Positions 1 to 60,292 of a stretch of 64,000 nucleotides of DNA are shown here, piece after piece. The notes under the pieces are model-generated. The model had not been told where the DNA came from. It worked only from the letters and a program-made list of their open reading frames with translations, and did not search any database. This DNA comes from Bacilli bacterium (lineage in GTDB: Bacteria > Bacillota_I > Bacilli_A > ML615J-28 > CAG-698). A program made the translations under genes and the position numbers. The stretch lies in contig JBMNLY010000001.1 in assembly GCA_050953045.1 (NCBI GenBank), positions 156,534-220,533 on the forward strand, given 5' to 3'. The first letter of the stretch is position 1. The number at the start of each line of letters is the position of its first letter.

Positions 1-694
1 CCCCAAAATAGTGCTTATTTTCGAGTTCTTTTCGTTTTGAAGCTAATGTACTAGGAGAATGTCCTGTATGAAGTAAAGCTAGATTGGCGATTATGTTTTT
101 GCTTGGTTTACTTTTAACTTCTTTTTCTTGCAAATTGCAATGAGCTTCATCAAGTTCAATGTAAATTGTTTCTTTTGACTCATTAAATTTTTCAATGATT
201 TCATCCATTCTAGGAAGATCATTTTCAACTATTGTATAGTTTTCTAAGATATTAGAAACAGTTTGACGAGAAACCTCTGTATCGGTTAATGCTTTTCTAG
301 CAGCATAGGAAGCATTAACTTCAGTAGCCATTTTGGTTAACTCAACAATTGCATTCATTGAAAGTCTTGAATATTTGATTATCCCTAAGAAACTATCTAC
401 GAAGAAGAAGTTTTCAATATCTTGTGATTTATTAAGTGCAACATAATAACGTCTTTTAAAAGTAATAACACCAATAGATGTAATAAGAGTACGTTCTTTA
501 AAACCGTGATTTCTATGAGTAGCTTTCCAAAGTTTGCTTTTAAAATATCTGTTATCAATTGTTTCTAGACATTCAATAATAGCTTGTCTAGTAAGTTCTT
601 TAGAATATTCTTTAAATCTAAAAACAACATCACTAAAAGAATAATTTTTAGGATTGCTCTTTAAAACTGGATTAGAATTTGATATAATATTCAT
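1..694 (-). CDS. ISLre2-family transposase, N-terminal portion (gene continues beyond window start)
   Basis: ATG (rc) at 692-694 corresponds to start of 478-aa transposase ORF 12425..13861. Confidence 0.75.
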   Translation of the reverse strand, partial: MNIISNSNPVLKSNPKNYSFSDVVFRFKEYSKELTRQAIIECLETIDNRYFKSKLWKATHRNHGFKERTLITSIGVITFKRRYYVALNKSQDIENFFFVDSFLGIIKYSRLSMNAIVELTKMATEVNASYAARKALTDTEVSRQTVSNILENYTIVENDLPRMDEIIEKFNESKETIYIELDEAHCNLQEKEVKSKPSKNIIANLALLHTGHSPSTLASKRKELENKHYFG

Positions 695-33979: not shown

Positions 33980-35197
33980 ATGAAATCCATGGCTCAGTTT
34001 AATATTACCCTAACCGAAGAAGAATTGCACGGACTTTTTATAAGCAACGGACGAGATGTAGCCGTAGCAAAATTGCTAGAAAAGATCTTTAATGAGATCC
34101 TTCGAGGCCAGTCCACTGAACAGCTATGTGCTGAACCGTATGAGAGAACCGATCAGCGAAGAGCATACCGTAATGGCAGCTATAAGCGTGAACTGGTGAC
34201 CCGGGTTGGAACACTGACCTTACGCATTCCTCGCCACCGAAACGGCGAATTCAGCACCGAACTTTTTGAACGTTATCAGCGGAGCGAACAGGCACTGGTG
34301 CTGGCCATGATGGAAATGGTGGTTAATGGTGTCTCTACTCGGAAAGTAGAAACCATCACCGAAGAACTCTGTGGCAAGAAGTTTTCTAAATCAACCGTTT
34401 CAGCTCTTTGTCAGAAATTGGACCCGCTGGTTCATGACTTTCGAACAAGACCGCTGGAAAGCCACTATCCGTTTTTGATAGTCGATGCCCTTTATCTCAA
34501 AGCGCGCATTAATAACAGGGTACAATCCAGAGGCTTACTTGTCGCTATCGGTGTCAACGAAAAAGGAAATCGGGAAGTTATCGGCTTTCAAGTGGCCAAT
34601 AGCGAATCGGAAAGCAGCTGGAGCGATTTTTTTGAATCATTAAAAGAGCGAGGGCTGAAGGATGTGCACCTGGTGACTTCCGACAACCATAAAGGCCTGG
34701 TGAATGCCATTCAGAAACAATTCCAGGGAACCACTTGGCAAAGGTGTCAAACCCACTTTTCAAGGAACATGATTGATCAGACACCCAAATCGCTGCAGGT
34801 CGAAATGAAGGAAGATCTGCGCCGACTTTACGAAGCCGTAGACCTGGAAAGCGCCAAAGGTGTCCGGGATCAGATTATTGCCACATATGAATCCAAAGCG
34901 CCTAGAGCAACATCCTTACTGGATGAAGCCTTTGACGATATTACCGCCGTTTTAATCATGCCACTCAAATACCGCAAAAGACTGCGTACAACCAATGGGG
35001 TAGAACGGCTTAACCAGGAAATCCGGCGTCGTGAACGGGTTATACGTATTTTCCCTAACGAGGCATCAGTGATCCGGCTCATGGGTGCCCTGCTGATGGA
35101 ACAAAGCGAAAAATGGCAGACAGGGTGTAAATACTTTGAGATGGATCTGTATTACCAGGCTATGAAAAAAGATTCAAAAGATACGTTTGCTGCTTAG
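33980..35197 (+). CDS. IS256-family (MULE) transposase; probable true start ATG 33989
   Basis: YPFLIVDALYLKAR, WQRCQTHFSRN, RTTNGVERLNQEIRRRERV signature blocks. Confidence 0.85.
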   Translation: MKSMAQFNITLTEEELHGLFISNGRDVAVAKLLEKIFNEILRGQSTEQLCAEPYERTDQRRAYRNGSYKRELVTRVGTLTLRIPRHRNGEFSTELFERYQRSEQALVLAMMEMVVNGVSTRKVETITEELCGKKFSKSTVSALCQKLDPLVHDFRTRPLESHYPFLIVDALYLKARINNRVQSRGLLVAIGVNEKGNREVIGFQVANSESESSWSDFFESLKERGLKDVHLVTSDNHKGLVNAIQKQFQGTTWQRCQTHFSRNMIDQTPKSLQVEMKEDLRRLYEAVDLESAKGVRDQIIATYESKAPRATSLLDEAFDDITAVLIMPLKYRKRLRTTNGVERLNQEIRRRERVIRIFPNEASVIRLMGALLMEQSEKWQTGCKYFEMDLYYQAMKKDSKDTFAA

Positions 35198-35217
35198 AGT
35201 CGCATTTATTCCACGGT

Positions 35218-35401
35218 CCTGGTTGACAGTGAGCCTCTAGCCGCATGGCTTCTGGCACCACAGGCAGCCCCCTGTTCACAACTGCCTACCTGGTCCTAAT
35301 GGGTGATTTAAAGCTGCCGAGTATTGCCATAAAGGTTGTCCCGTGTTTGGGTGCTGCCAGGCTTTTAGCCTACCATGCGGCCTCTCACTGTTCAACCAGG
35401 C
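35218..35401 (+). other. GC-rich structured segment inside IS 3' region (long-range stem CCTGGTTGACAGTGAG...CTCACTGTTCAACCAGG, inner stem GCCGCATGG/CCATGCGGC); candidate IS-borne RNA element
   Basis: 314-bp non-coding tail after transposase stop, nested inverted repeats. Confidence 0.35.
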
Positions 35402-35505
35402 TTTCGCGGCATAAAAGCTCACGGTTTGTGATACTGAAAAAGTGAGCAGCCTTAACAACAAACTGATTAAAGTGTTACCGAGGAAATTTACACACTAATT
35501 GGGAC

Positions 35506-35534
35506 TTGACTTTGTAACGTTTGCATATTATCAT
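35506..35534 (+). promoter_or_regulatory. possible hybrid promoter: outward -35 TTGACT at IS end + flank -10 TATCAT (17-nt spacer) directed at SDR gene
   Basis: IS256 ends are known to create hybrid promoters; geometry fits. Confidence 0.35.
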
Positions 35535-35621
35535 ATTATTACAGTATTTGATTCGTGTGTTAACCAAATAGCGGAAATGTTAAACGAAAAGAAAGAGGTG
35601 ATGTGTAAGTAGAAACACCTG

Positions 35622-36059
35622 AAAGATAAAAATTTAGAAAGGTGGAATCTATAATGGGTAAATTAGATGGCAAAGTAGTAGTAGTGACAGGTTCAGTTTC
35701 AGCGATTCCTGGTTTTGACTCTATCGGTTCGGCAACAGTTCGTGAAGCATTGGCTGAAGGAGCAAAAAAAGATAAAAATTTAGAAAGGTGGAATCTATAA
35801 TGGGTAAATTAGATGGCAAAGTAGTAGTAGTGACAGGTTCAGTTTCAGCGATTCCTGGTTTTGACTCTATCGGTTCGGCAACAGTTCGTGAAGCATTGGC
35901 TGAAGGAGCAAAAAAAGATAAAAATTTAGAAAGGTGGAATCTATAATGGGTAAATTAGATGGCAAAGTAGTAGTAGTGACAGGTTCAGTTTCAGCGATTC
36001 CTGGTTTTGACTCTATCGGTTCGGCAACAGTTCGTGAAGCATTGGCTGAAGGAGCAAAA
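35622..36059 (+). repeat. tandem triplication (3 x 146 bp) of SDR gene leader + RBS + first 37 codons
   Basis: ATGs at 35654, 35800, 35946 each preceded by GGTGGAATCTATA; upstream minigenes end ..ERWNL TAA overlapping next ATG (TAATG). Confidence 0.9.
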
Positions 36060-36875
36060 GGGGTAGTTGTGTCCGACATTAACGACAAATTGGGTGAAGC
36101 TTTTGTTAAGGAATTAAATGAGAAATACGGTGAAGGACACGCAACTTTTGTTCACACTGACGTATCTAAACCTGAAGATGTTGAAAAATTATTTGAAACT
36201 ACAGAAAAGGTTTATGGAACTGTAGATGCAATAATGGCTAATGCCGGCGTGGTAACTGCAGAAGATGTCGATAAAGATCCGGAAGAAGTCTTGAAATCTC
36301 GTAAATTTATTCAAAGCATCAATGAAGATGGAGTATTCTATACAGCATTATATGGTTCTCGTTTAATGATCAAAAAAGGAACAAAAGGTTCAATCGTAAT
36401 GGTTTCCAGTATTCATGGTGTTGCAGGTCGTCCTAAAGTTGTAAATCAGGAAACAGGCGATGTTTTAATTGAGCGTTTCAATTTACTTCAATATACAATG
36501 GGTAAACATGGCGTAGTTGGTTTATCAAAAGCATTAGCCCTGCAATTAGCAGATTATGGTATACGCGTAAATACTGTAAATCCAGGTTATATTATGACAC
36601 CATTATTCCAAGCAGCTGTAGCTGCCGATAAAAACGATCTGGCAGATAAAGATTCATTGACAACAGAAGCATTTGACTTTGCTCAATTAGCAGCATTACA
36701 CCCATTATGCAATGACCCTGTAAAAGATAAAGATATCGTTCCTCGCGGCAAATTCGGCGGCCGGATGGGGGTTCCTGCTGAAATTGCTAAGCCTGCGGTA
36801 TTCTTAATGTCAGATGAAGCATCCTTTGTGACAGGTCAAAAATTAGTAATTGATGGGGGTTATACTGCAAGCTAA
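35946..36875 (+). CDS. short-chain dehydrogenase/reductase (SDR) family oxidoreductase, transposon passenger
   Basis: YTMGK (YxxxK), NTVNPGYIMTPL, atypical Gly-rich N-term TGSVSAIPGFDSIGSA; ORF-track start 35934 is an upstream GTG. Confidence 0.75.
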   Translation: MGKLDGKVVVVTGSVSAIPGFDSIGSATVREALAEGAKGVVVSDINDKLGEAFVKELNEKYGEGHATFVHTDVSKPEDVEKLFETTEKVYGTVDAIMANAGVVTAEDVDKDPEEVLKSRKFIQSINEDGVFYTALYGSRLMIKKGTKGSIVMVSSIHGVAGRPKVVNQETGDVLIERFNLLQYTMGKHGVVGLSKALALQLADYGIRVNTVNPGYIMTPLFQAAVAADKNDLADKDSLTTEAFDFAQLAALHPLCNDPVKDKDIVPRGKFGGRMGVPAEIAKPAVFLMSDEASFVTGQKLVIDGGYTAS

Positions 36876-36949
36876 AAGCAACCTAATAATCACTAAACCG
36901 TGTAAATGGAATAATGATCTAAAAATCTAGTTAGGGGCTGCTGAAAAAC

Positions 36950-38576
36950 GATTAAGCCCTTATAATTGTGTAAAAAGAAAATGAGCCACAAACTCATATC
37001 CTCGGTTAGAATATAAGTGACAAACAAATACCAAACCGAGGAGGATGAAATCCATGGCTCAGTTTAATATTACCCTAACCGAAGAAGAATTGCACGGACT
37101 TTTTATAAGCAACGGACGAGATGTAGCCGTAGCAAAATTGCTAGAAAAGATCTTTAATGAGATCCTTCGAGGCCAGTCCACTGAACAGCTATGTGCTGAA
37201 CCGTATGAGAGAACCGATCAGCGAAGAGCATACCGTAATGGCAGCTATAAGCGTGAACTGGTGACCCGGGTTGGAACACTGACCTTACGCATTCCTCGCC
37301 ACCGAAACGGCGAATTCAGCACCGAACTTTTTGAACGTTATCAGCGGAGCGAACAGGCACTGGTGCTGGCCATGATGGAAATGGTGGTTAATGGTGTCTC
37401 TACTCGGAAAGTAGAAACCATCACCGAAGAACTCTGTGGCAAGAAGTTTTCTAAATCAACCGTTTCAGCTCTTTGTCAGAAATTGGACCCGCTGGTTCAT
37501 GACTTTCGAACAAGACCGCTGGAAAGCCACTATCCGTTTTTGATAGTCGATGCCCTTTATCTCAAAGCGCGCATTAATAACAGGGTACAATCCAGAGGCT
37601 TACTTGTCGCTATCGGTGTCAACGAAAAAGGAAATCGGGAAGTTATCGGCTTTCAAGTGGCCAATAGCGAATCGGAAAGCAGCTGGAGCGATTTTTTTGA
37701 ATCATTAAAAGAGCGAGGGCTGAAGGATGTGCACCTGGTGACTTCCGACAACCATAAAGGCCTGGTGAATGCCATTCAGAAACAATTCCAGGGAACCACT
37801 TGGCAAAGGTGTCAAACCCACTTTTCAAGGAACATGATTGATCAGACACCCAAATCGCTGCAGGTCGAAATGAAGGAAGATCTGCGCCGACTTTACGAAG
37901 CCGTAGACCTGGAAAGCGCCAAAGGTGTCCGGGATCAGATTATTGCCACATATGAATCCAAAGCGCCTAGAGCAACATCCTTACTGGATGAAGCCTTTGA
38001 CGATATTACCGCCGTTTTAATCATGCCACTCAAATACCGCAAAAGACTGCGTACAACCAATGGGGTAGAACGGCTTAACCAGGAAATCCGGCGTCGTGAA
38101 CGGGTTATACGTATTTTCCCTAACGAGGCATCAGTGATCCGGCTCATGGGTGCCCTGCTGATGGAACAAAGCGAAAAATGGCAGACAGGGTGTAAATACT
38201 TTGAGATGGATCTGTATTACCAGGCTATGAAAAAAGATTCAAAAGATACGTTTGCTGCTTAGAGTCGCATTTATTCCACGGTCCTGGTTGACAGTGAGCC
38301 TCTAGCCGCATGGCTTCTGGCACCACAGGCAGCCCCCTGTTCACAACTGCCTACCTGGTCCTAATGGGTGATTTAAAGCTGCCGAGTATTGCCATAAAGG
38401 TTGTCCCGTGTTTGGGTGCTGCCAGGCTTTTAGCCTACCATGCGGCCTCTCACTGTTCAACCAGGCTTTCGCGGCATAAAAGCTCACGGTTTGTGATACT
38501 GAAAAAGTGAGCAGCCTTAACAACAAACTGATTAAAGTGTTACCGAGGAAATTTACACACTAATTGGGACTTGACT
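36950..38576 (+). mobile_element. IS256-family insertion sequence, copy 2 (identical to copy 1)
   Basis: identical sequence and ORF content. Confidence 0.8.
37045..38262 (+). CDS. IS256-family transposase (copy 2)
   Basis: identical to 33980..35197. Confidence 0.85.
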   Translation: MKSMAQFNITLTEEELHGLFISNGRDVAVAKLLEKIFNEILRGQSTEQLCAEPYERTDQRRAYRNGSYKRELVTRVGTLTLRIPRHRNGEFSTELFERYQRSEQALVLAMMEMVVNGVSTRKVETITEELCGKKFSKSTVSALCQKLDPLVHDFRTRPLESHYPFLIVDALYLKARINNRVQSRGLLVAIGVNEKGNREVIGFQVANSESESSWSDFFESLKERGLKDVHLVTSDNHKGLVNAIQKQFQGTTWQRCQTHFSRNMIDQTPKSLQVEMKEDLRRLYEAVDLESAKGVRDQIIATYESKAPRATSLLDEAFDDITAVLIMPLKYRKRLRTTNGVERLNQEIRRRERVIRIFPNEASVIRLMGALLMEQSEKWQTGCKYFEMDLYYQAMKKDSKDTFAA

Positions 38577-38586: not shown

Positions 38587-39510
38587 ATGTTAATGGTTTT
38601 AGTAGCCGTATTTAGTCTCTTTGCTCTTACAGCTTGTGGAGAAAGAACTTATAAGGCTGACGGTGTTTATGCAGCATTTGCTGAAAGCACAAATTATGGA
38701 GCTCCTCAAATTACAGTTGTAACTGTCACAATTAAAAATGACAAGATTGAAAGCTTCTATATTGATTGCTTACAATCTACAGCTGTAAAAAATGAGGAAG
38801 ATGTTGTAACCGGTTATAATTTTAACGAAAAAACTAAAAAAGAATTACGTTATGATTACCGTATGCACGGACCGGGTATGGATGAAGAAGAATATTTAGA
38901 TTATCTTGAAGAAAATAACAAACTTGAATGGTTTGAACAAGCAGAACTTCTTGAAGCTTATTTCAAAGAAAACGGCACAGATTTAACTGTTGACAAAGAT
39001 GGCTATATTCAAAACGTTTCTGGTGTTTCCATTGTCGATAGCGATTATTCAAAATTAGCTAAAAAAGCAGTTGAAAATGCGAAAGCCGGAAAAGTTTATA
39101 GCTGGGTTGCAACAGGTGGCTCAACTACTAGTCTGATTTGGGCTGAAGGTACAGTTGATAAGAATGGCAAATTAACCAGCCTGAAACTTGATACTCGCCA
39201 AGGAAGAATAACCGACGGTACATTTGCTTGGGATGAAGAAACCAAACAAGAAAAGGGTTATGATTATCGTATGCATGGACCAGGCATGGAAGAAGAAGCA
39301 TATTTAGATTATCTTGAAGAAAATAACAAACTTGAATGGTTTGAACAAGCAGATCTCTTAGCTGCTTATGTTCTTGAAAACGGCTTGGCGAATGTAAAAT
39401 ATGATGATAACGGCAAACTTGATAATGCACCGGAAGCAATCGCTGAGGTCTCAGTTACCGTTAACCATTATGTAAAAGTTATGAAAGATTTAGTAGATAA
39501 CTGGAAATAA
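38587..39510 (+). CDS. lipoprotein with internal ~50-aa duplication; 5' end (first 4 codons, RBS, promoter) severed by transposon
   Basis: lipobox LFALTAC; repeat YDYRMHGPGM(D/E)EEEYLDYLEENNKLEWFEQA twice; residual ORF lacks SD and positively charged n-region. Confidence 0.7.
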   Translation: MLMVLVAVFSLFALTACGERTYKADGVYAAFAESTNYGAPQITVVTVTIKNDKIESFYIDCLQSTAVKNEEDVVTGYNFNEKTKKELRYDYRMHGPGMDEEEYLDYLEENNKLEWFEQAELLEAYFKENGTDLTVDKDGYIQNVSGVSIVDSDYSKLAKKAVENAKAGKVYSWVATGGSTTSLIWAEGTVDKNGKLTSLKLDTRQGRITDGTFAWDEETKQEKGYDYRMHGPGMEEEAYLDYLEENNKLEWFEQADLLAAYVLENGLANVKYDDNGKLDNAPEAIAEVSVTVNHYVKVMKDLVDNWK

Positions 39511-44881: not shown

Positions 44882-45535
44882 ATGATTTCCGAAAGAATAA
44901 AAACCTTGGCCGCACTTGTTCCCCCAGCAAAAAGTTTGGCGGATGTCGGCTGTGATCATGGATATTTATTAGTCGAAGCCTTTCAAAAATATGGTTTGGA
45001 TTATGCCGTCGCCATCGACAACAAAGAACTCCCTTTAAAAAATGCTCGCGATAATTTAAAGCGCTACCCCTTTTTCTCACAAATCCGTTTCAGTCTTTCC
45101 GATGGACTCGAAGATTTAAAAGAAGAAGTGGAAGCAATCGTGATTGCCGGAATGGGAGGGATTTTAATAACTCAGATTTTAAAAGAAGGTTTAACTAAAC
45201 ACCGTGAAGCAAAATATATCTTCCAGGCTAACCGAAATCTCTACGAATTAAGAAGGTTTCTATATGAAGAAAAAATGGAGATCGCATCTGAGAAGATTAT
45301 CTTTGAAGACGGACAGTACTATGAGATAATCGTTTCTAAGGCTGCGAAAAAGCCTCTAGTTTATACGGAAGCGGACCTTATTTTCGGTCCAGTCTTAAGA
45401 CGGACAAAACCGCCTTTGTTTTTGGAGAAATTAAAAGCAGAAATACTAAGGATTTCTGAAATTGATCATCCGGATATAAAAATGAAAATCAAAAGAATCG
45501 AGGAAGAGTTATATGAAAATAAGCACAATCACTGA
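44882..45535 (+). CDS. trmK: tRNA (adenine22-N1)-methyltransferase
   Basis: MISERIKTLAALV...LADVGCDHGYL motif I. Confidence 0.8.
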   Translation: MISERIKTLAALVPPAKSLADVGCDHGYLLVEAFQKYGLDYAVAIDNKELPLKNARDNLKRYPFFSQIRFSLSDGLEDLKEEVEAIVIAGMGGILITQILKEGLTKHREAKYIFQANRNLYELRRFLYEEKMEIASEKIIFEDGQYYEIIVSKAAKKPLVYTEADLIFGPVLRRTKPPLFLEKLKAEILRISEIDHPDIKMKIKRIEEELYENKHNH

Positions 45536-47713: not shown

Positions 47714-52124
<4,411 letters not shown>

Positions 52125-52145
52125 AATTCTATAAAATAGGGCTCT

Positions 52146-52198
52146 TCAGAGAAGATTATCTTAATGATGGCGAATAGTTCATCATTAATCTTCTCTGA
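52146..52198. repeat. hairpin element carrying GAGAAGATTATCTT motif (TCAGAGAAGATTA[TCT]TAATGATG - loop - CATCATTAATCTTCTCTGA)
   Basis: 20-bp inverted repeat; prototype of motif family recurring 52.1-59.4 kb. Confidence 0.7.
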
Positions 52199-52218
52199 AT
52201 CTGGCAAAGGAGTTCATT

Positions 52219-53262
52219 ATGAGCACAGTACTTAATATCAATCGTTTCATCATCCCTAACGATGTTGTAGTTTCGCTTTCGACGGTTTACCGCTGGATCG
52301 GAAAAAATGGATTTTTTGAAGAAACGGTTAAAACTGATTTAAATAGGATTGTACAAGCAACAGTTGAAAGAGATGCTTATTTTCTTTTAAAAATCTTAGA
52401 TTTAAATGTAACCGATTCAAGAGCTCGTTTGATTATTACCAAGAATTCTAATCCTCGTACCAAGGATGAAACTGCACTCTTTCGGCTCAAGGAATTGCTG
52501 TTACAAATTCAAGAAAATTATCGCGAAATCCGCCACCAAAGCAATGATTTATTAGACTTGGCTAATTTTCTTTTCTCACATTATCATGAGATAAAATTTA
52601 CTTATGAAGAAACAGATAAGAAAACTGTTTTAAAAAGTCAAGCCAATCGCAGCAAACGCTTAATTTTGGATAAAATCAATGAACAGGCTGATGAAATTAA
52701 TGAAAAAAAGAGTTTTGAAAAACTCGTGCTTTACTTAAATCTTTTTATCGATTTTTATAATATTGCTCCCTTTACGGAGAGGAATAAAGAAGTATCTTTA
52801 ATCTTGTTATTGCTATTACTCTTAAAAGCGGATCTTGAAGCTTTTCGGTATGTCAGCTTTTTTGAACTCTTGAATAATAACTTATCTGAATTTAAAACTG
52901 AAGTCAAAAATGCCAGTTTTAACTGGAAAGAGGGTTTTGCTCAAACAATGGGCTTTATCCGTTTTATGTTGCGTTTAGTAATAAATGCTTATGAAAAAGC
53001 TTATGATATCATTAAAGATTATCAGTTTGATACTAATTTAAATAAGGGTTATAATATCAAAAACACAATACTTAAACTGCCGCAAATCTTTACAAAAGAT
53101 GAAATAAGAATCTTACATCCTTTTGTGAGTGATTCTACAATTAACCGGACCTTAATTAGAATGCGGGATGAGGGGTTGATTAAACCATTAGGAAAAGGAA
53201 GATCCGCAAAATGGATTCGGATCACTCAGGAAAAGGACTATGGCAAAAACCAACTATCATAA
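52219..53262 (+). CDS. hypothetical protein with C-terminal winged-helix DNA-binding domain (possibly degenerate Fic/DOC-like)
   Basis: C-term ..RTLIRMRDEGLIKPLGKGRSAKWIRI wHTH pattern; no intact HPFx[DE]GNGR motif. Confidence 0.45.
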   Translation: MSTVLNINRFIIPNDVVVSLSTVYRWIGKNGFFEETVKTDLNRIVQATVERDAYFLLKILDLNVTDSRARLIITKNSNPRTKDETALFRLKELLLQIQENYREIRHQSNDLLDLANFLFSHYHEIKFTYEETDKKTVLKSQANRSKRLILDKINEQADEINEKKSFEKLVLYLNLFIDFYNIAPFTERNKEVSLILLLLLLLKADLEAFRYVSFFELLNNNLSEFKTEVKNASFNWKEGFAQTMGFIRFMLRLVINAYEKAYDIIKDYQFDTNLNKGYNIKNTILKLPQIFTKDEIRILHPFVSDSTINRTLIRMRDEGLIKPLGKGRSAKWIRITQEKDYGKNQLS

Positions 53263-54019
53263 CCATACCTATTTATGTCAACATGCCCAAGGCTTACCCT
53301 ATGATTATATTAAGCGTGCTGTTGAACTTGACTACGATGAAATTGGAATGAGTGATCACGGACCAATATTATATGATCTTTTTGCCCGAATGACGCTTTC
53401 TGAATTTTATGATATTTATTTACCTGATATCGAGAAAGCCAAACAAGAATTTTTTAAGCAGATTAAAATCTACAAAGGACTCGAAATTGAATATTTCCAA
53501 AATCATCATCAACATTATGAAATGTTATTGAAAGACCTTGATTACTTAATTTTGGGTCAGCATGTCCTTATTCATCAAAGCAAGTTCATTGATGTCTTTC
53601 GGGATATGAATGATGAATATTTGGAACTATATAAAGATACTGTAATTGAAGCATTAGAAACCAAGTATTTTCGGATTTTGGCTCACCCCGACATTTATCT
53701 TTTTGGCTACCAAACATGGAATGAAAAAACCGAAAAAGTCGCTAGAGCTATCATTGAAGCAGCAATCCGAACCGATACGCTTCTGGAAATTAATGCAAAC
53801 GGCATCAGAAGAAGAAGGATTATCAATCAAGATGGAGAAGAGGTTTATCTTTATCCTCGGAAAGAATTCTGGACTCTTTTAAAAGCTTATCCGGAAGCAC
53901 AAATCATAATTAATGAAGACAATCATGCTTTAAAACAAATAGGAGATAAAGCTGTCTTCCGGGCACATGAGTTTGCTCAGGAGTTAAATTTAACGATAAG
54001 GGATTTTCTTTATGATTAG
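53240..54019 (+). CDS. PHP-family histidinol-phosphatase-like phosphoesterase (HisJ family)
   Basis: N-term YHNHTYLCQHA...DHGP metal-binding motifs. Confidence 0.7.
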   Translation: MAKTNYHNHTYLCQHAQGLPYDYIKRAVELDYDEIGMSDHGPILYDLFARMTLSEFYDIYLPDIEKAKQEFFKQIKIYKGLEIEYFQNHHQHYEMLLKDLDYLILGQHVLIHQSKFIDVFRDMNDEYLELYKDTVIEALETKYFRILAHPDIYLFGYQTWNEKTEKVARAIIEAAIRTDTLLEINANGIRRRRIINQDGEEVYLYPRKEFWTLLKAYPEAQIIINEDNHALKQIGDKAVFRAHEFAQELNLTIRDFLYD

Positions 54020-54812
54020 CATCTACAAATGGCGTTTATTCTATTTAATACTTTCATCAATTTTACTGCTTACACTTGCATATTTTGTCATCAAAGAACG
54101 TTTTTCTTATGATATTTTTTTTCTGTTAATTGTTTTTTTCCTCTTTTTACATTTCTTTTTCCAAAGATTTGAAAAGAAGAAAACGTTAAAAATCCATATG
54201 ATTTACCTGCAGGATTTAAATCCTTTAGCTTATCTGGAAGAATATCAGAAATTTAATAAAAAACGTTTCTTATCAAAAGCAGCAAAATCAATAAATAAAA
54301 TTAATAGTGCCCTTGTTTTGCTTACCGCAGATAAGATTGAAAAAGCTCATCAAATTCTAATTGGTCTTGTGGATCAAGAACCGAAATTTGGGCCTTATCT
54401 TCGTTTCTGGTATTATACAGCCTGGATTAATTACTATGACGAAGTTGATGATCTAACTAGGATGAAATTTCTGCTGGAGCAGAATAAAGCAATCTTAAAA
54501 GAAATACCTCCTAAATATCGCCAAAAATTAGTTGAAAATTTTGAGTTTTTTAAAGCAAAATGTTTTGTAAAGGAAGGCATTTTTCTCGACACTGCAGAAA
54601 ACTACTTCTATGACATCCTCCGCACTAACCTGCCTAAACTAACCATCTTAAATTGCGTTTACCAACTTGGAGTTATTGCTTATAAGAACGGAAAATATGA
54701 ACTTTCTAAAAGAAGGTTTCAGTCGGTAGTGATGAACGGAAAAGACTTAAACGAAGCCAAGAAAGCAAAAACATTCCTTGAGAAAATAGATGAACTTAAC
54801 CTAAATGCATAG
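54012..54812 (+). CDS. hypothetical membrane protein with two N-terminal TM helices and TPR-like helical C-terminal domain
   Basis: hydrophobic N-term LFYLILSSILLLTLAYFVI / IFFLLIVFFLFLHFFF. Confidence 0.45.
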   Translation: MISIYKWRLFYLILSSILLLTLAYFVIKERFSYDIFFLLIVFFLFLHFFFQRFEKKKTLKIHMIYLQDLNPLAYLEEYQKFNKKRFLSKAAKSINKINSALVLLTADKIEKAHQILIGLVDQEPKFGPYLRFWYYTAWINYYDEVDDLTRMKFLLEQNKAILKEIPPKYRQKLVENFEFFKAKCFVKEGIFLDTAENYFYDILRTNLPKLTILNCVYQLGVIAYKNGKYELSKRRFQSVVMNGKDLNEAKKAKTFLEKIDELNLNA

Positions 54813-54863
54813 ATTAAACCAACTCTCAATTTTGAGAGTTTTATTTTTTTAACCTTATTCTAA

Positions 54864-54875
54864 GAAGATTATCTT
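54864..54875 (+). repeat. GAAGATTATCTT motif copy (followed by TTCATCATTAA half, degenerate hairpin element)
   Basis: exact 10-mer AGATTATCTT. Confidence 0.6.
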
Positions 54876-54942
54876 TAATATTGTTTAGAGTTCATCATTA
54901 AACCTATTAAATAGCGCATATACTCTTATAAGCATGCTATAA

Positions 54943-54954
54943 GAAGATTATCTT
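54943..54954 (+). repeat. GAAGATTATCTT motif copy, about 90 bp upstream of PP-loop operon
   Basis: exact 10-mer. Confidence 0.6.
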
Positions 54955-55041
54955 TTCTTTGTTTAACAATTATAGTATAATTTTATTACATGTCGATTCT
55001 TAGCAGCTTTGTGCTATTATTGAAGAAGAAAGGAAATTGGT

Positions 55042-56436
55042 ATGGAATATTATCTACAAAAACGCTGGAAATTAGAAGAGCGAAGTTTAGTTTATTATGG
55101 CCTTCGAAACAAAGAAAATTTATTTAAGAACACTATAAAACTCTCTAAGAAACAAAGTAGGATTATAGGTAGTTTACCGAAGACGCTGGATGAAAAGGAA
55201 TGTGTAATCTTAAAGAAATTTATCGGTAAACAGGTTGTTTTGAAAAAAGATCTTAAAAAAATTCCTAAATCTTTAAAAGAAGCAAAATTCTGTAAGGAAT
55301 GCGTTGCAAATGATTATATGATACCTGGCTTAGAATTAAACGATTTCGGATTATGTCCCTTATGTCAAACCAAGGAACTTGCGGAAACTTTAAAAAGCGT
55401 CGTTCCGATTCTAAACGAGATTCCAAAATCAAAAAAATCCAGATTTGATGTCGGTCTTTTTTACACCGGTGGTAAAGATTCTACATATCTTTTGTATTAT
55501 TTATCAGAGGTCTTACAATTACGGGTACTCGCTATGACATGGGAAATCCCTTTTATCTCCTCTTCCGCAAAAGCCAGCATTGAGAATGCGAAAAGGAAAC
55601 TCGCAAATGTAGAATTTATTACTAAAAAGATAAACGATAATGATTTACGTAAAATCTATAATAAACTCTATTCTTTAAATGAAAACACCTGTGCCTGTCC
55701 TTCGCTAGCTTATATTCTTTTTTATCCTGATTTGGTAGAAAACAAAGTTCCATATTTTGTTGTTGGTAATGAACCCGTGCAAATGCTTGGCCTTTATTAT
55801 AATCAGATGGCACCAAAAATTGCTTACAGATTCTCCAATTATTTTCTTTTAAATCTTTTAATAAATATTTTTCGAATGCTTACCTTAAGACCACCTTTTA
55901 AAAAAGGTCAACTCCATACACTCATGACAATGAAGCAACTTGCTTATGGTGACAGTTTCGTAAAGAAAATTTCAAAATATAAAAATGAATTGGTTTCAAA
56001 TGTAGTAGCTTCCATCCATGAAGTCAAGTCAATCCTAATTCCCTTAAAAAGAAGTATCAGAAGATCAGCATGGACCGGAAGCATTCCCCGTTTTGTCCAT
56101 ATTGATTTAAATGACATCTCCGGCGGAATCTATGATTGGCAGAATGTAAAAGAAATTATAATTGATAAATGTGGTTGGGTGGCTCCGGAAGAGAAAGGAA
56201 AAGGACTTCATACCAGCTGCTCAATCGAAAAATGCAAAGAATATTCTCAATTCCAAAGATTCTATCATATGAGAAGCAAAATGATACCTTTCAGCGCCTT
56301 AGAAATAGCTCTTGCGAGTAGAAACAAAAACATTACGAGAGAAGAAGCAGTTTATGAATTAGAAAGAGTACTTGGCTTTTCTTTAACTGAAATTCCTGAA
56401 TGCAAGATTATGAAAGATTATTTAGGAGCAAAATAA
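55042..56436 (+). CDS. zinc-ribbon + PP-loop ATP pyrophosphatase of TtuA/Ncs6/TtcA-like type with ~250-aa C-terminal extension
   Basis: CKEC...CPLC zinc ribbon then FYTGGKDSTYLL (SGGxDS PP-loop); further Cys pairs CAC, C..C..KC. Confidence 0.55.
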   Translation: MEYYLQKRWKLEERSLVYYGLRNKENLFKNTIKLSKKQSRIIGSLPKTLDEKECVILKKFIGKQVVLKKDLKKIPKSLKEAKFCKECVANDYMIPGLELNDFGLCPLCQTKELAETLKSVVPILNEIPKSKKSRFDVGLFYTGGKDSTYLLYYLSEVLQLRVLAMTWEIPFISSSAKASIENAKRKLANVEFITKKINDNDLRKIYNKLYSLNENTCACPSLAYILFYPDLVENKVPYFVVGNEPVQMLGLYYNQMAPKIAYRFSNYFLLNLLINIFRMLTLRPPFKKGQLHTLMTMKQLAYGDSFVKKISKYKNELVSNVVASIHEVKSILIPLKRSIRRSAWTGSIPRFVHIDLNDISGGIYDWQNVKEIIIDKCGWVAPEEKGKGLHTSCSIEKCKEYSQFQRFYHMRSKMIPFSALEIALASRNKNITREEAVYELERVLGFSLTEIPECKIMKDYLGAK

Positions 56437-56437
56437 A

Positions 56438-57142
56438 ATGAATTTAGTTATTTGTTTTTCTCCGACTGGAGGAACAAAGAAAATCGCTGATTATGCAGCA
56501 AATTATCTAAATTTTCAATTGCTTGACTTAACAGCTTTTAAAGATCACAAAGATTTCAATTTCCAACAAGAATTCGATTATCTCGTTCTTTGTTTTCCGG
56601 TTTACTCACAAAACATTCCTAAACCAGTTAAAGAAATTATCAAAAAACTGAAAGCTAAATGTTATATTCTAATAGCTACCTACGGTAGAATGCATATGGG
56701 TAATGTTTTATGGGAAGCAAACAAACACTTACAGGGAAGATTGATCGGTGGTGCCTATATACCGACAAAACATACTTATCAAGAAGGAGATTATTTTAAA
56801 GATTATCAAAAACTTAATTCCCTGCTTTCTAGAGCAATAAAAAAAGAAACCAAGCAAATTGTAATTCCGAAACTAAAGAAGAATCCTTTTGCTGATTTCT
56901 TTCCAAATGGAAGAAGCCGGTATGCGATAAAAATAAAGAAGAACGCAAATTGCAATAAATGTAATCATTGTAACCGCGTTTGTCCACAAGAAGCTATTAA
57001 TTTTGGAACAATTACGAAGGACTGTATTAGATGCCTTAGCTGTTATTACAATTGTCCGAATAAAGCTTTGGAAGTAAAATATTCAATTTTCTTAAAAGCT
57101 TATTTAAAAAAGGATAAAATTAAAGATTTAATTATTTACTAA
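56438..57142 (+). CDS. flavodoxin-like domain fused to 2x[4Fe-4S] ferredoxin domain
   Basis: N-term CFSPTGGTKKIADY flavodoxin signature; C-term CNKCNHCNRVCP and CIRCLSCYYNCP; ATG 1 nt after upstream stop. Confidence 0.65.
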   Translation: MNLVICFSPTGGTKKIADYAANYLNFQLLDLTAFKDHKDFNFQQEFDYLVLCFPVYSQNIPKPVKEIIKKLKAKCYILIATYGRMHMGNVLWEANKHLQGRLIGGAYIPTKHTYQEGDYFKDYQKLNSLLSRAIKKETKQIVIPKLKKNPFADFFPNGRSRYAIKIKKNANCNKCNHCNRVCPQEAINFGTITKDCIRCLSCYYNCPNKALEVKYSIFLKAYLKKDKIKDLIIY

Positions 57143-57163
57143 TAATCAATACCCCTTTTTAGA

Positions 57164-57175
57164 GAAGATTATCTT
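57164..57175 (+). repeat. GAAGATTATCTT motif copy between convergent gene ends
   Basis: exact 10-mer. Confidence 0.6.
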
Positions 57176-57259
57176 TTATTAAGCGGGCAATTAACAATAA
57201 AGATTTTCTCAAGCCCTCTTTAGAAAATCTTTAATTTATTCTCTTATATAAATAGCGCT

Positions 57260-57748
57260 TTATTCGTCGCCTTTATCAATAAATTTCTTTATCAAACGAA
57301 CAAATTCAGCTATTTCCTGATGATCGATTGTAGGTGCAATAAAATTAGGATTTTTCATTAAGGCTTTAGTCATTAATTTGGCTAAACCTTTTTGTTTTTC
57401 TAGAATTAATACTCCTCCGAAAGTCTTCATGACAAGGGCATCGTTTCTGATGCTTTCTGTAAAATTTTGACTCATTACCTTAGTAAATGTTTCAGGTAAC
57501 CCTTGGCAAACAAAGATCGCAAAATTTTTTTCTTGAATTAAATTTTTGTATTTTTTCAAAAACCTCTTAATCTTAGGGTGAACCATTCCCATACGGATAG
57601 AAGAACCAATAATGATAATATCATAATCATTTAAATTTCCATTGTCAGCCTCTAAATTGATAAGAGAAGCATCCAGGGCTTTACTCAATATCCCTGCACA
57701 ATATTCAGTAGTACCTGTTTTTCCAGCATAGATTATCCCTATTTTCAT
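57260..57748 (-). CDS. flavodoxin family protein
   Basis: MKIGIIYAGKTGTTEYCAG flavodoxin-like N-term, 162 aa. Confidence 0.6.
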   Translation of the reverse strand: MKIGIIYAGKTGTTEYCAGILSKALDASLINLEADNGNLNDYDIIIIGSSIRMGMVHPKIKRFLKKYKNLIQEKNFAIFVCQGLPETFTKVMSQNFTESIRNDALVMKTFGGVLILEKQKGLAKLMTKALMKNPNFIAPTIDHQEIAEFVRLIKKFIDKGDE

Positions 57749-57836
57749 TCAAACCTCCTAAATTTAATTACCATAATAATACAAAAATCGAGTGAGATTG
57801 GCAAAGGATATTTTAATGTGTAAGAATCCTTGTTCT

Positions 57837-57850
57837 GAAAAGATTATCTT
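57837..57850 (+). repeat. GAAAAGATTATCTT motif copy + TTCATCATTAA half, about 95 bp upstream of flavodoxin start
   Basis: exact 10-mer; same composite architecture as 52146 and 54864 copies. Confidence 0.6.
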
Positions 57851-58177
57851 TATTAATGCCGGTTATTCATCATTAAGCTAATCAAATTTGGCCATAAATT
57901 ACCTTAGTTAAAGAAATATAGGAAGATGTTATAAGTAATCAAAAAGAATTTAATATATTTATTTTTGGATTTATAGATAAACAACTGACTTCCTATAATA
58001 TATATTATGTTAAGTAGATAATATATACGACCCTGCCTGAAAAAATAAAACGGTGTTTAGATGTTGAAATAAGCAATTCACTTAATAGATAACAATAAAG
58101 TAATTATCACCTAGATTGGAAAGGGCAACTCTCAGGCGCTTATTAAACAACTTTATTCATGATTCTCCATCTCAAAA

Positions 58178-58194
58178 AAGATAACCTTCTGAGA
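58178..58194 (-). repeat. motif copy (rc TCTCAGAAGGTTATCTT, 1 mismatch)
   Basis: within ORF-free 1.1-kb region. Confidence 0.45.
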
Positions 58195-58264
58195 GGCTCG
58201 GTTTAAATTGATTCTTTAATAAGATCTTTGATTTGATTAATTATGATTTTCTCTTAACCAAACA

Positions 58265-58277
58265 AAAGATAATCTCC
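58265..58277 (-). repeat. motif copy (rc GGAGATTATCTTT)
   Basis: exact 10-mer. Confidence 0.5.
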
Positions 58278-58441
58278 TTTAAAGCAGCTTCTTCTTTTTC
58301 TATATTTTTTTCATTAATCAAAACAATCATAAACTGATATTGGATAATACATCAGATCAATTTAGAAAGAGAAAATATTTCTGACTATTACGGATTAAAA
58401 AAATCTTATTAGAAGGTCAACGGATCATAACTTTACTAAAT

Positions 58442-58459
58442 TAAAGATAATCTTCTCTA
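58442..58459 (-). repeat. motif copy (rc CTAGAGAAGATTATCTTT)
   Basis: exact 10-mer with GAGAAG flank. Confidence 0.6.
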
Positions 58460-58845
58460 GTGAGGTCTTTTGAAGCATGATACAAATAAAAAAAGCTCCC
58501 TTTAAGAGAAAGCTTAATACAGAGTCTAAATTACTATTAAACAGGCCAAACTCCAAATTTCCCTTTACACCGTTTTTGGTTCAGGAGTGAGTATTTTATG
58601 GTCCTAATTGATAAAATGGAAATTGGGCGAAATTTAAGAGTGAATATCTACGCTTGAAGGCAAATTTATAAATAGATTAAATAAGCTATGAATAAAGGTA
58701 GATAATATTCGACTTTTTTCTACATTCTTCTACAAATAAATTAACTCATTATTGATTGCTGACTGCATTTAATGAAAATAATAGAGTAAAATGTCGAAAT
58801 AATTAGTATAATTTGTAAAAGGTTGTAATAATTAAATGAATTCTA

Positions 58846-59280
58846 TCAGAAAAACTTGATTATTGTAACAGCAAGAAGTCCCGACATTTCTAAAGCATTA
58901 ATAATCAGTCCAAAAGAATTTAAAACTAAACCGGTTGTTGCATAATAACCGGATTTTCTGATAATCCTTGCTTTTAGAAAGCCAATTGTTCCACAAATCA
59001 TCCCAATCAATGTGAAAACAAGAACCGAAAAGATCATTCCAATTTGAATGATTTTATCGTCTGTATCAGTTAAGATGATTGCTAAAATCAAAAACATTGA
59101 TACAAGAGAAAGAGCTAGACTTACGCAACCTAAAGCATTAAGTACCAACATATTCTTCTGCTTTTTTCTTTCGTATCTTTTTATTTCGTCAATACTTTTT
59201 TCAAACACTGGTTGTTCCATATCCGCCTCGTTTACAATTGGTTTAATAATATTATTTCTGAAATGATGAAATTTATACAA
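58846..59280 (-). CDS. hypothetical membrane protein (3-4 TM)
   Basis: 144 aa, hydrophobic C-terminal two thirds. Confidence 0.45.
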   Translation of the reverse strand: MYKFHHFRNNIIKPIVNEADMEQPVFEKSIDEIKRYERKKQKNMLVLNALGCVSLALSLVSMFLILAIILTDTDDKIIQIGMIFSVLVFTLIGMICGTIGFLKARIIRKSGYYATTGLVLNSFGLIINALEMSGLLAVTIIKFF

Positions 59281-59337
59281 ACTTGTATTATTGAGGCGGA
59301 TTTTGAGATGTTTTATAGAAGAATTCTACGTCACAAA

Positions 59338-59354
59338 AAGATAATCTACTCAGA
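59338..59354 (-). repeat. motif copy (rc TGAGTAGATTATCTTT), about 60 bp upstream of membrane protein start
   Basis: exact 10-mer. Confidence 0.5.
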
Positions 59355-59362
59355 AACGTGGT

Positions 59363-60292
59363 TTATTCAAGTTTTCCGAGACGGCTGTTTAACCAAGTAA
59401 AACAATCTTTCATTACTTCTTCTTTATTTGTTTCTAAAAGAAGTTCATGGCGAGCACCAGCATATAATTTAAATTCCAAATCCTTGATTTCCATGAATTT
59501 TAAAGTATTGTAAAGAGCGGTGATTAATTTAACCGGACCACCGACTGGATCTTCGGAACCGCTTAAGAGTAAAATCGGAAGTTTCTTGGGAACTAATTCA
59601 AAGTTATGATTGATTGCTCTTAAGCCTCTGAAGAAATCACGGAAAAAGGCAGCGGTGAAAATTCCTCCGCAGTATTCGTCATCAATATACTTCTTTACTT
59701 CATTTTCATCTCGGTTCAGCCAATCAAAATCAGATTTGGACGGACGGAAATATTTATTATAATTTCCGAAGGTTAAATTATTTAAGAGTTTGCTCCGGTG
59801 TCTTGCGCCTTTAAAGCGGATGATTAAACGAGCAAGCAAAATTCCTGCTCTAAGAGCTAGTCTAGGTTGTTTGGCTGATCCAGAAAGAATGATTCCGGAA
59901 ATTTTACTTCCATGTAATTGTACAAATCTTTGGGTAACAAAAGAACCCATGCTGTGGCCAAAGATAAATATAGGCAGTTTCGGGTTTTCTTCTTGAACAT
60001 ATTTGACCATTTCATAAAGATCGGAAACCAAAATCATAAAATTATCATCATCATGCATATAACCGTAATCGTCTTTATTTACGATTGTTCCTTTATGTCC
60101 GCGCTGATTATACCCATAGACGATAAAACCATCTTTACTTAATCTTTCCGCAAATCCCGCATATCTTTCGATGTGTTCGGCCATTCCATGAACAAGAATG
60201 ATTGCGGCTTTTGGTTCTTTAGTTTCATACCATTTATGAGTTTCTATTAAACCTTGGTGACTGAAGGTGAGTTTTTTTACCTCAGTTGCCAT
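59363..60292 (-). CDS. alpha/beta hydrolase (lysophospholipase/monoacylglycerol lipase-like)
   Basis: GHSMGS nucleophile elbow, HG oxyanion motif, C-term His. Confidence 0.7.
   Translation of the reverse strand: MATEVKKLTFSHQGLIETHKWYETKEPKAAIILVHGMAEHIERYAGFAERLSKDGFIVYGYNQRGHKGTIVNKDDYGYMHDDDNFMILVSDLYEMVKYVQEENPKLPIFIFGHSMGSFVTQRFVQLHGSKISGIILSGSAKQPRLALRAGILLARLIIRFKGARHRSKLLNNLTFGNYNKYFRPSKSDFDWLNRDENEVKKYIDDEYCGGIFTAAFFRDFFRGLRAINHNFELVPKKLPILLLSGSEDPVGGPVKLITALYNTLKFMEIKDLEFKLYAGARHELLLETNKEEVMKDCFTWLNSRLGKLE

Follow-up and report, generated by a model that had tools for sequence, protein, structure and literature searches.

The window, a 64,000-nucleotide stretch of an uncultured, Acholeplasmatales-like member of the class Bacilli (contig JBMNLY010000001.1, positions 156,534 to 220,533), was found to contain a cluster of short elements of ~60 bp on both sides of a dif-like site, all of them pointing towards it. 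Left of dif, 6/6 strong sites were found on the plus strand, and right of dif 4/4 were found on the minus strand; nine copies were located within 5.9 kb of dif. The strict polarity of the copies, their positional restriction and their location around dif at the terminus were observed, as was purifying selection on the core of the element across species. The copies are tentatively read, with a probability of about 0.4, as polar and putatively protein-bound terminus sites that would form a Ter-like fork trap. The original prediction for this DNA had described a clustered near-palindromic 10-mer at the operon boundaries of an accessory region and had missed the organising principle, which is that the cluster is centred on dif and that the orientation of the copies flips there.

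The exact 10-mer AGATTATCTT was found 12 times in the 64-kb window, against 0.40 +/- 0.65 occurrences expected from shuffled sequences. Eight of the 12 were contained in 52153-59347, at 52153, 54866, 54945, 57166 and 57841 on the plus strand and at 58266, 58444 and 59338 on the minus strand, and a one-mismatch 12-mer of the motif was found at 58178-58189 on the minus strand. The plus-strand coordinates of the original prediction were borne out, as was the existence of its near copy, whereas its minus-strand positions were off by 0-3 nt. It had also taken the match at 45292 for the only further exact one in the window; this was not so, as 38898 (+), 39306 (+) and 41012 (-) were found to match as well, each within an open reading frame (ORF). 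The matches at 38898 and 39306 belong to an ORF of 307 amino acids (aa) at 38587-39510 (+) with a weak match to the DUF6293 winged-helix domain, which contained an internal direct repeat of 150 nt (38827-38976 and 39235-39384, 84% identical) with the exact 10-mer in each unit.

Alignment of the copies gave a conserved core of ~19 nt, about TTCTGAGAAGATTATCTTT, which is longer than the 10-mer. A 19-nt matrix built on this core was scanned over the window with a site threshold of 20 bits and returned 10 sites of 20-28 bits, the next best in the 64 kb reaching 14.6 bits. The sites were located at 45286, 52145, 54858, 54937, 57158 and 57833 on the plus strand and at 58177, 58265, 58443 and 59337 on the minus strand. 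A sequence-only covariance model (R1) returned the same 10 sites and no others in the window at E <= 1. With 12 exact 10-mers against 0.4 expected and 10 matrix sites, the proposed motif cluster is real and non-random. Identical copies were found in at least eight independent assemblies of this species from different samples, so the cluster is no assembly artefact. The census of copies covered 72 kb of this species and ~20 kb per relative.

The dif-like 28-mer ACTTCCTATAATATATATTATGTTAAGT was found at 57988-58015, where it was unique in the window and identical at 25 of 28 positions to the dif of Bacillus subtilis, ACTTCCTAGAATATATATTATGTAAACT (PMC3025954). The cumulative guanine-cytosine (GC) skew was found to climb to 56-57 kb and then to drop. 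The genes were located on the plus strand up to 57142 and on the minus strand from 57260, the latter continuing for at least 10 kb past the window. The parE and parC genes were found just left of dif and a gene for an XerD-type recombinase just right of it, in conserved housekeeping synteny; dif is the chromosome dimer-resolution site of XerC/XerD. The heptamer GAAGAAG, which is the experimentally validated FtsK-orienting motif (FtsK orienting polar sequence, KOPS) of Lactococcus lactis (PMC3384302), was the most skewed 7-mer in the window, with about one occurrence per 1.1 kb, and was found to flip at dif. Its plus-to-minus ratio was 50:2 left of dif and 0:4 right of it, followed by a leading-strand ratio of 10:1 in the extended right arm, and inside lagging-strand genes it was still found on the leading strand (2:0). 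GAAGAAG is probably the translocase-orienting motif of this organism. On the evidence of the dif 28-mer, the skew peak, the switch of gene strand, the parE/parC and XerD flanks and the flip of GAAGAAG, dif at 57988-58015 marks the replication terminus. A dif was also found at the syntenic position in seven relatives (L015, L017, L048, L024, L016, L047 and L050), and its orientation was identical in all eight species. A stretch of ~50 nt at 58016-58065 (...AATATATACGACCCTGCCTGAAAAAATAAAACGGTGTTTAGATG), which adjoins the XerD arm of dif, was conserved in four species and still recognisable in the distant L047, L050 and L016; this block could be an accessory dif sequence, or a small transcript or promoter.

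The flip in the orientation of the copies was located between 57851 and 58177, where it brackets dif and is distinct from the gene-strand switch at 57142/57260. Copies were found 5' of genes, 3' of genes and in ORF-free DNA. As the original prediction implied, every intergenic gap of the variable region between parC and the hydrolase gene contained a copy (5/5 gaps, 52.1 to 59.4 kb), whereas none was found in the other 24 gaps of the window, which comprise 5.7 kb of intergenic DNA (Fisher p = 8e-6). Within the window the intergenic copies were therefore confined to 52.1-59.4 kb. The matrix and model scan found no copy in the next ~10 kb to the right of the window, and no intergenic copy was found in ~65 kb of this species off the dif locus or in the flanks of eight relatives, a scope that falls short of whole genomes.

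Relatives were found through homologues of a 347-aa protein encoded next to parC, and the syntenic loci were taken from species at 82 to 49% identity. The dif-centred flip was found to recur in four further species. L015 (82%) contained dif at 14867, with copies at 12629, 13271 and 14475 on the plus strand and at 15051, 15278, 15419 and 16516 on the minus strand. L017 (76%, dif at 14285) contained three plus-strand copies on the left and minus-strand copies on the right, and L048 (79%, dif at 12656) contained five plus-strand copies on the left and three minus-strand copies on the right. In Acholeplasmatales bacterium DTU067 (L024, GC 45%), dif was located between two plus-strand copies and one minus-strand copy. 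L047 (62%) and L016 (61%) contained copies on the left side only, all on the plus strand, and L039 kept one copy, which points from the hydrolase side to the expected dif. Across species, 35/35 intergenic copies were found to obey the rule of pointing to dif, including those of the one-sided L047 and L016.

The genes between the copies were found to turn over. The module of the 464-aa and 234-aa genes was intact in the window species and in L048 and was decaying in L017, where the 464-aa PP-loop-like gene had shrunk to a remnant of 550 nt (12690-13242), and in the metagenome-assembled genome (MAG) of DTU067 (L024 1-553), where the 464-aa gene contained a frameshift and was joined to a truncated flavodoxin gene. 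In L015 the place of this module between the same two element copies was taken by an unrelated 151-aa gene (12758-13213), and L048 had lost the flavodoxin gene and retained the copies. When the spacer between the flavodoxin gene and dif was aligned for four species, conservation was limited to three blocks, namely box 1 of the element (the 19-nt core), dif itself and the ~50 nt beside dif; the purifying selection on box 1 is therefore comparable to that on dif. Exact-pattern scans of public collections returned mostly chance matches, plus DTU067, L039, L032 and one phage contig. The contig L006 (Ga0603712_0144) was 99.9% identical to the window up to 54702, followed by the presence of unrelated FeoAB and DtxR-family genes. 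It was rejected as a presence/absence polymorphism, since its breakpoint (4255, window 54702) falls within the 266-aa gene and off any element, and it is probably a chimeric or rearranged contig.

The alignment of all copies, which had been proposed with the original prediction, defined an element of ~60 bp. From 36 aligned copies the consensus AAnnCCTTTTCTGAGAAGATTATCTTTTnTAAGnTGGATAATTnnnCATTAAnnTTTTTnAAAA was obtained, an asymmetric and imperfect palindrome in which TTATC was invariant in all aligned copies and A..AGA and TTT were nearly invariant. Box 1 corresponds to the core TTCTGAGAAGATTATCTTT, followed ~12 nt downstream by box 2, GRATAATT, an inverted repeat of GATTATC. Box 3, (C)ATTAATCTTCTC, was found to mirror GAGAAGATTA, and the outer arms GCCYTTTCT and AGAAAAGGC close the long imperfect palindrome. 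Folding above shuffled sequences was found in only 3 of 14 copies, namely 52138-52198 (z = -5.1), the copy of L016 (z = -4.0) and the copy at 12622 of L017 (z = -2.2). The hairpin at 52146, which had been described as a perfect one of 20 bp, does exist; its computed fold contained 13 + 7 bp with a 5-nt bulge (-15.4 kcal/mol, z = -5.1) rather than an unbroken 20 bp. Boxes 2 and 3 were found to vary without compensating change in box 1. As few copies fold, and as box 1 is invariant while its partner arms vary, the constant feature is a linear, asymmetric, double-stranded sequence, which argues for recognition by a protein and not for an obligatory hairpin. Parallel changes in both arms were seen at the parC-proximal copy in five species, with a shifted alignment and few cases. 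No match to Rfam 15 was found in the window at the gathering threshold, nor at E <= 1 in 51900-59500, and in the literature searched no account was found, for Firmicutes or Mollicutes, of polar repeats that converge on dif. The element thus appears to belong to no described family and may work like 'polar terminus elements'.

A fork trap would explain these features as follows. Two opposed arrays of copies converge on dif in this Acholeplasmatales-like organism, and a sequence-specific DNA-binding protein would occupy the copies in an orientation-dependent manner. The bound copies would then act as polar barriers and confine the meeting of the forks to a few kb around dif, a role equivalent to that of Tus-Ter in Escherichia coli and RTP-Ter in B. 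subtilis. Opposed asymmetric sites that bracket dif, are found nowhere else in view and are kept despite gene turnover constitute the signature of such a trap; protein binding, fork arrest and the blocking face of the site are what we infer from it. Known fork traps are marked by two opposed groups of asymmetric sites around dif, which are imperfect inverted repeats, and by a ter site in the promoter of each known terminator gene (PMC13220808, PMC10331603). Only two unrelated systems are known, Tus-Ter, which is found in Enterobacterales and a few related bacteria, and RTP-Ter, which some Bacillus species possess, and according to reviews most bacteria probably live without a fork trap, the purpose of which is still debated (PMC10331603, PMC13220808). 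The wider claim that the window holds a third, independently evolved bacterial fork trap, with a compact (+/-6 kb) Ter-like array whose sequence is unrelated to Tus and RTP sites and with a new terminator protein, possibly the dead Fic-fold/winged-helix protein described below, is doubtful.

Several observations weigh against a fork trap. By the logic of RTP, a fork that reaches the strong, conserved half-site first is blocked (PMC10331603), and box 1 was found to face the origin side, the wrong way for a trap on this logic. Of the 20 proteins of the window that were scanned, none contained a Tus or RTP domain. Many copies start 5-30 nt past a co-oriented stop codon, in the manner of 3'-end elements. 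Paralogous copies in one genome were found to be alike beyond the core, for instance those at 13271 and 15278 of L015, which suggests a copy-and-paste spread. Many of the 35 copies that obey the rule are orthologous, so the number of independent events lies well below 35. The distant L016 and L050 contained dif without a flanking array, and the system is therefore not essential to the wider lineage. Stray members of the family were found in other places: one between a cvfB-like gene and the T-box leader of hisS on a metagenome contig of GC 43% (L032 4908-4969), and a complete hairpin copy just after a DNA cytosine-methyltransferase gene on a phage contig of IMG/VR (L034/L044 562-615). The census described above also amounts to less than a genome.

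Four other explanations were weighed against the polar terminus sites. Recombination-prone palindromic elements at module boundaries, which would be selfish or serve as att sites and bracket accessory modules by dif in the manner of repetitive extragenic palindromes (REP) paired as REPINs, of miniature inverted-repeat transposable elements (MITEs) or of attC sites, are a rather unlikely source of the pattern. Selection would then produce the polarity, as direct repeats across dif delete dif and inverted repeats within a replichore invert genes, so that direct repeats on each side with inverted repeats across dif would be the sole stable layout. Such elements would fit the imperfect palindrome of ~60-70 bp with conserved outer arms (GCCTTTTCTGAGAAG...CTTCTCAGAAAAGGC), the copies that bound every variable module (the 151-aa swap of L015, the module remnants of L017 and DTU067), the extended similarity of paralogous copies, the family members in the phage contig and between the cvfB-like gene and hisS, and the parallel alteration of both arms between L046 and L047. 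However, no locus-specific recombinase was seen, the nearby XerD being in housekeeping synteny, and the R''/R' cores of attC were absent. Neither excision nor insertion nor inversion polymorphism was found in ~10 assemblies of this species, and the dif orientation was the same in eight species, so no inversion across dif was ever fixed. Orphan copies kept box 1 only, which is the same arm each time, whereas random loss of either arm would be expected from the decay of a palindrome, and tandem copies 88-178 bp apart were found without cargo. The MITE- or REP-like dispersed element that the original prediction had offered as one option agrees with these results in being a longer imperfect palindrome; its dispersal is poorly supported, with no copy in the other 24 gaps of the window or in ~10 kb further right, and no insertion or excision polymorphism was found across ~10 assemblies of this species. 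It is quite unlikely that the copies serve as polar sites at which DNA-tracking segregation machines, and not replication forks, are guided or unloaded, either orienting FtsK/SpoIIIE like KOPS and the SpoIIIE recognition sequence (SRS) or stopping and unloading SMC, for which MatP-matS and XerD may be compared. Like KOPS and SRS, the copies do point to dif on either side of it, box 1 and the B. subtilis SRS GAGAAGGG open with the same six bases, GAGAAG (PMC3384302), and XerD unloads SMC near the B. subtilis terminus (cited in PMC8357415 and PMC12322038). Against this, the generic role seems to be filled by GAAGAAG, which occurs about once per 1.1 kb and flips at dif, conservation within the element is highest at AGATTATCTT and not at GAGAAG, and the ~19-bp core is confined to +/-6 kb, unlike the dispersed 7-8-mers. 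The box contained an invariant TTATC in place of the TTATG of the XerD arm and matched either dif arm with four mismatches in 11 at best, on which ground its identity with an XerD arm was rejected.

Hairpins acting in RNA at the 3' ends of genes read toward dif, whether as REP-like stabilisers, processing sites or unconventional terminators with the orphan copies as relics, would suit the position of about half of the copies, which start 5-30 nt past a co-oriented stop codon (in the window after parC, the 234-aa gene and the hydrolase gene, elsewhere at several places in L015, L048, L047 and L034). The strong folds at 52138-52198 and in L016 (z = -5.1 and -4.0), the stem deviations that are often compatible with G-T/G-U pairing and the symmetric box-less hairpin at the hydrolase 3' end of the distant L050 point the same way. 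This explanation is nevertheless very unlikely, since most copies fold no better than shuffled sequences, an Rfam match was absent even at E = 1, the copy at 54858 comes after a canonical terminator, the copy at 57833, the box of which is conserved in four species, has no co-oriented upstream gene, and ~45 other genes of the window contained no element. Most improbable of all are operators of one transcription factor shared by the flavodoxin, PP-loop/Fe-S, membrane-protein and winged helix-turn-helix (wHTH) genes, with the wHTH protein as candidate regulator, which the original prediction had suggested; the co-regulated genes might then form a regulon of the iron- or redox-sparing kind. The core AAGAT-T-ATCTT does form a 5-1-5 palindrome, in several species copies precede the flavodoxin, 124-aa, 464-aa and 347-aa genes by 50-130 nt, box 1 and box 2 each contained a GATAAT-type hexamer, and the C-terminal wHTH of the 347-aa protein is highly conserved. 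But copies between convergent gene ends and in the ORF-free DNA at 58177-58461 have nothing there to regulate, the box of the flavodoxin gene was located ~30 nt upstream of the best -35 hexamer without promoter overlap, and L015, L017 and L050 contained no copy before the wHTH gene, so the operator of the wHTH protein could not be upheld. A strict dif-centred orientation is also unexpected for a palindromic operator, and L048 keeps its copies after the loss of the flavodoxin gene. Likeness to the ARG box was considered and rejected: three copies matched well, and the mismatch distribution of the family as a whole was at background level. ArgR is a Xer accessory factor at cer. Likeness to the Fur box and the CodY box was seen by eye only and was confined to the less conserved parts of the element, that to the Fur box being likewise no higher than background. 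A reverse-strand promoter, with box 2 as -35 and box 1 as -10, was rejected as it would send antisense transcripts into the upstream genes at most copies.

For the polar terminus sites, the sole local candidate for a binder is the 347-aa pseudo-Fic/wHTH protein encoded at 52219-53262 (+), which was proposed on its position; it is unlikely to be the one. It was found to contain a Fic fold and a C-terminal winged helix (structure matches 8uqu and 3eqx; model of predicted local distance difference test score, pLDDT, 90) and gave no Pfam match. Its catalytic motif was degenerate, with IAPFTERNKEVS where canonical Fic proteins contain HPFxDGNGRxxR, and its C-terminal winged helix was invariant among homologues. 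More than 400 homologues were found, all from MAGs of uncultured 'Bacilli bacterium' or Acholeplasmataceae. In every case the gene was located between parC and dif, mostly together with a gene for a PHP-domain protein and a 266-aa gene, and in L050 it ends ~300 bp from dif. A copy was found directly upstream of it in 7 of the 10 species examined; in L015, L017 and L050, which lack this copy, the distance from the parC stop codon to the ATG was only ~20-36 nt. The product of the 124-aa gene was found to be small and rich in hydrophobic stretches, with 3-4 membrane helices by eye; as a predicted membrane protein it was rejected as an unlikely DNA binder.

The copy nearest to parC (M0) was located at 52138-52198 on the plus strand (core box 52145-52163; 26.3 bits, model E = 4.9e-13, fold z = -5.1), between the parC stop codon and the pseudo-Fic/wHTH gene, and was the sole strong hairpin former in the window. 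Equivalents were found at the same position in L048, L016, L018, L046, L047 and L049. The next copy, at 54851-54912 (+; core box 54858-54876; 28.1 bits, E = 3.3e-10), comes after the intrinsic terminator (54821-54840) of the 266-aa gene, followed by the copy upstream of the 464-aa PP-loop-like gene at 54930-54988 (+; core box 54937-54955; 22.5 bits, E = 9.2e-07). The copy at 57151-57211 (+; core box 57158-57176; 26.3 bits, E = 1.3e-13) was located between the convergent ends of the 234-aa gene (+) and the flavodoxin gene (-) and was homologous to 13266-13332 of L015; a copy between convergent gene ends, as originally described, was thus found at 57158 and also at 13271 of L015. In the same gap a strong hairpin at 57198-57233 (z = -3.7) resembles a bidirectional terminator. 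One of its arms is the 3' part of the 57151-57211 element and the other resembles a degenerate box 1, so that alternative pairings are possible. The innermost left copy was found at 57826-57886 (+; core box 57833-57851; 27.5 bits), 137 bp from dif and on the strand opposite to the adjacent flavodoxin gene (-).

The innermost right copy was located at 58141-58202 on the minus strand (core box 58177-58195; 23.2 bits, E = 3.6e-09), 162 bp from dif. It was followed by the presence of a degenerate copy at 58236-58287 (-; core box 58265-58283; 20.1 bits, E = 1.5e-05) and a copy at 58409-58461 (-; core box 58443-58461; 20.6 bits, E = 3.9e-05), both in ORF-free DNA. The ~830 bp right of dif (58016-58845) were found to contain these three copies and no ORF of at least 50 aa. 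A terminator-like hairpin was found in this ORF-free stretch at 58493-58515 (-), and others were seen by eye at similar positions in L015, L017 and DTU067, and the stretch from this hairpin to the 124-aa gene could harbour an unannotated small RNA or 3' untranslated region. The outermost right copy, at 59304-59362 (-; core box 59337-59355; 27.6 bits, E = 1.4e-08), was located 8 nt past the stop codon of the hydrolase gene and precedes the 124-aa membrane-protein gene by ~115 nt, and its orthologues were found at 16516 of L015, 15667 of L017, 13942 of L048 and 1857 of L024. In L050, at 49% identity the most distant of the relatives, the hydrolase 3' end contained a symmetric hairpin of 63 nt (12850-12912) whose outer arms are related to those of the element and which lacks the ATTATCTTT box; it may represent an ancestral form of the element. 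A possible outlying copy was found inside trmK at 45285-45339 (+; 27.9 bits, E = 2.3e-05), where it encodes SEKIIF. It was located 12.7 kb left of dif in the orientation that fits the rule and was kept in L015 and L017, with a codon conservation not clearly above background. An EKIIF-coding stretch in parC of L049 yielded the same 15-mer, and the trmK copy may be a by-product of coding.

Elsewhere in the window, two 405-aa ORFs of the Mutator/IS256 transposase family with identical Pfam scores were found at 33980-35197 and 37045-38262 (+). Their GC content was ~0.47 against ~0.36, and they flank a short-chain dehydrogenase gene (35934-36875); the pair looks like a composite transposon at 33980-38262. 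A UPF0236-family ORF was found at 12425-13861 (-), and the sequences at ~209 and ~569 recurred at 13376 and 13736; the start of the window (209-600) may thus hold another, incomplete copy of this mobile element.

If the copies do form a third fork trap, they would provide an independent natural experiment on the purpose of fork traps, in a compact, dif-centred system of a small AT-rich genome whose sites can be read from the sequence, and they would offer a new polar DNA-protein barrier usable as a tool. If they are recombination or segregation sites instead, they would still represent a terminus-specific cis element not described before, and they would show that dif-centred polarity can serve to find such elements in MAGs.

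Among the known systems, integron attC sites and clusters of attC sites lacking integrases (CALIN) resemble the element as imperfect palindromes with conserved ends and a variable centre, located just 3' of modules in one array. Unlike attC, the consensus contained no RYYYAAC or GTTRRRY core, no integron integrase was found and the sole nearby tyrosine recombinase is the syntenic XerD; the orientation also inverts in the middle of the array, at dif, and several tandem sites have no cassette between them. REP, bacterial interspersed mosaic elements (BIMEs) and REPINs share with it the form of short, intergenic, imperfect palindromes, often 3' of genes or between convergent genes and possibly protein sites (PMC2817692). 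The element differs from REP in its few copies at one locus with uniform polarity, whereas REPs typically occur in more than 100 dispersed copies that alternate within BIMEs; a stable hairpin was found in only 3/14 copies and no RAYT gene was seen.

KOPS, SRS and the architecture imparting sequences (AIMS) are oriented to dif on both replichores as the copies are, and box 1 starts with GAGAAG as SRS does. KOPS are 7-8-mers found chromosome-wide, including in coding DNA, whereas the element contained a 19-bp core within 19-60 bp, was almost exclusively intergenic and was confined to +/-6 kb; the features of a KOPS (frequent, skewed, flipping at dif) were found here in GAAGAAG and not in the element. 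Like matS/MatP and the XerD sites, the copies are restricted to the terminus, as putative protein sites compared with known sites that act on chromosome organisation. matS differs as a symmetric 13-mer spread over hundreds of kb, and the XerD sites differ in the TTATG of the XerD arm, which the box lacks.

Of the two fork traps, Tus-Ter of E. coli also has two opposed clusters of polar sites at the terminus, some of them within genes, and one of these sites, TerB, falls within the promoter region of the gene for the terminator, to which the copy before the 347-aa gene may be likened. It differs in its scale of hundreds of kb against a few kb here; no copy contained the GTTGTAAC core, of which three occurrences were found elsewhere in the window, and no Tus homologue was found among the scanned window proteins. 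The element consensus was not similar to the RTP-Ter consensus, from which its best match differed by 11 mismatches in 29, with no window match near the copies. The element measures ~60 bp against the 30-32 bp of Ter, the array ~7 kb against ~10% of the chromosome, no RTP gene was found among the scanned window proteins, and the conserved half faces the origin side, opposite to the B-site rule of RTP. In its arrangement, however, the array resembles RTP-Ter of B. subtilis: asymmetric sites flank the dif region in two opposed groups, the innermost sites being close together, the sites are imperfect inverted repeats with one half well conserved and one weaker, one site adjoins a candidate DNA-binding gene, and the host likewise belongs to the Bacilli.

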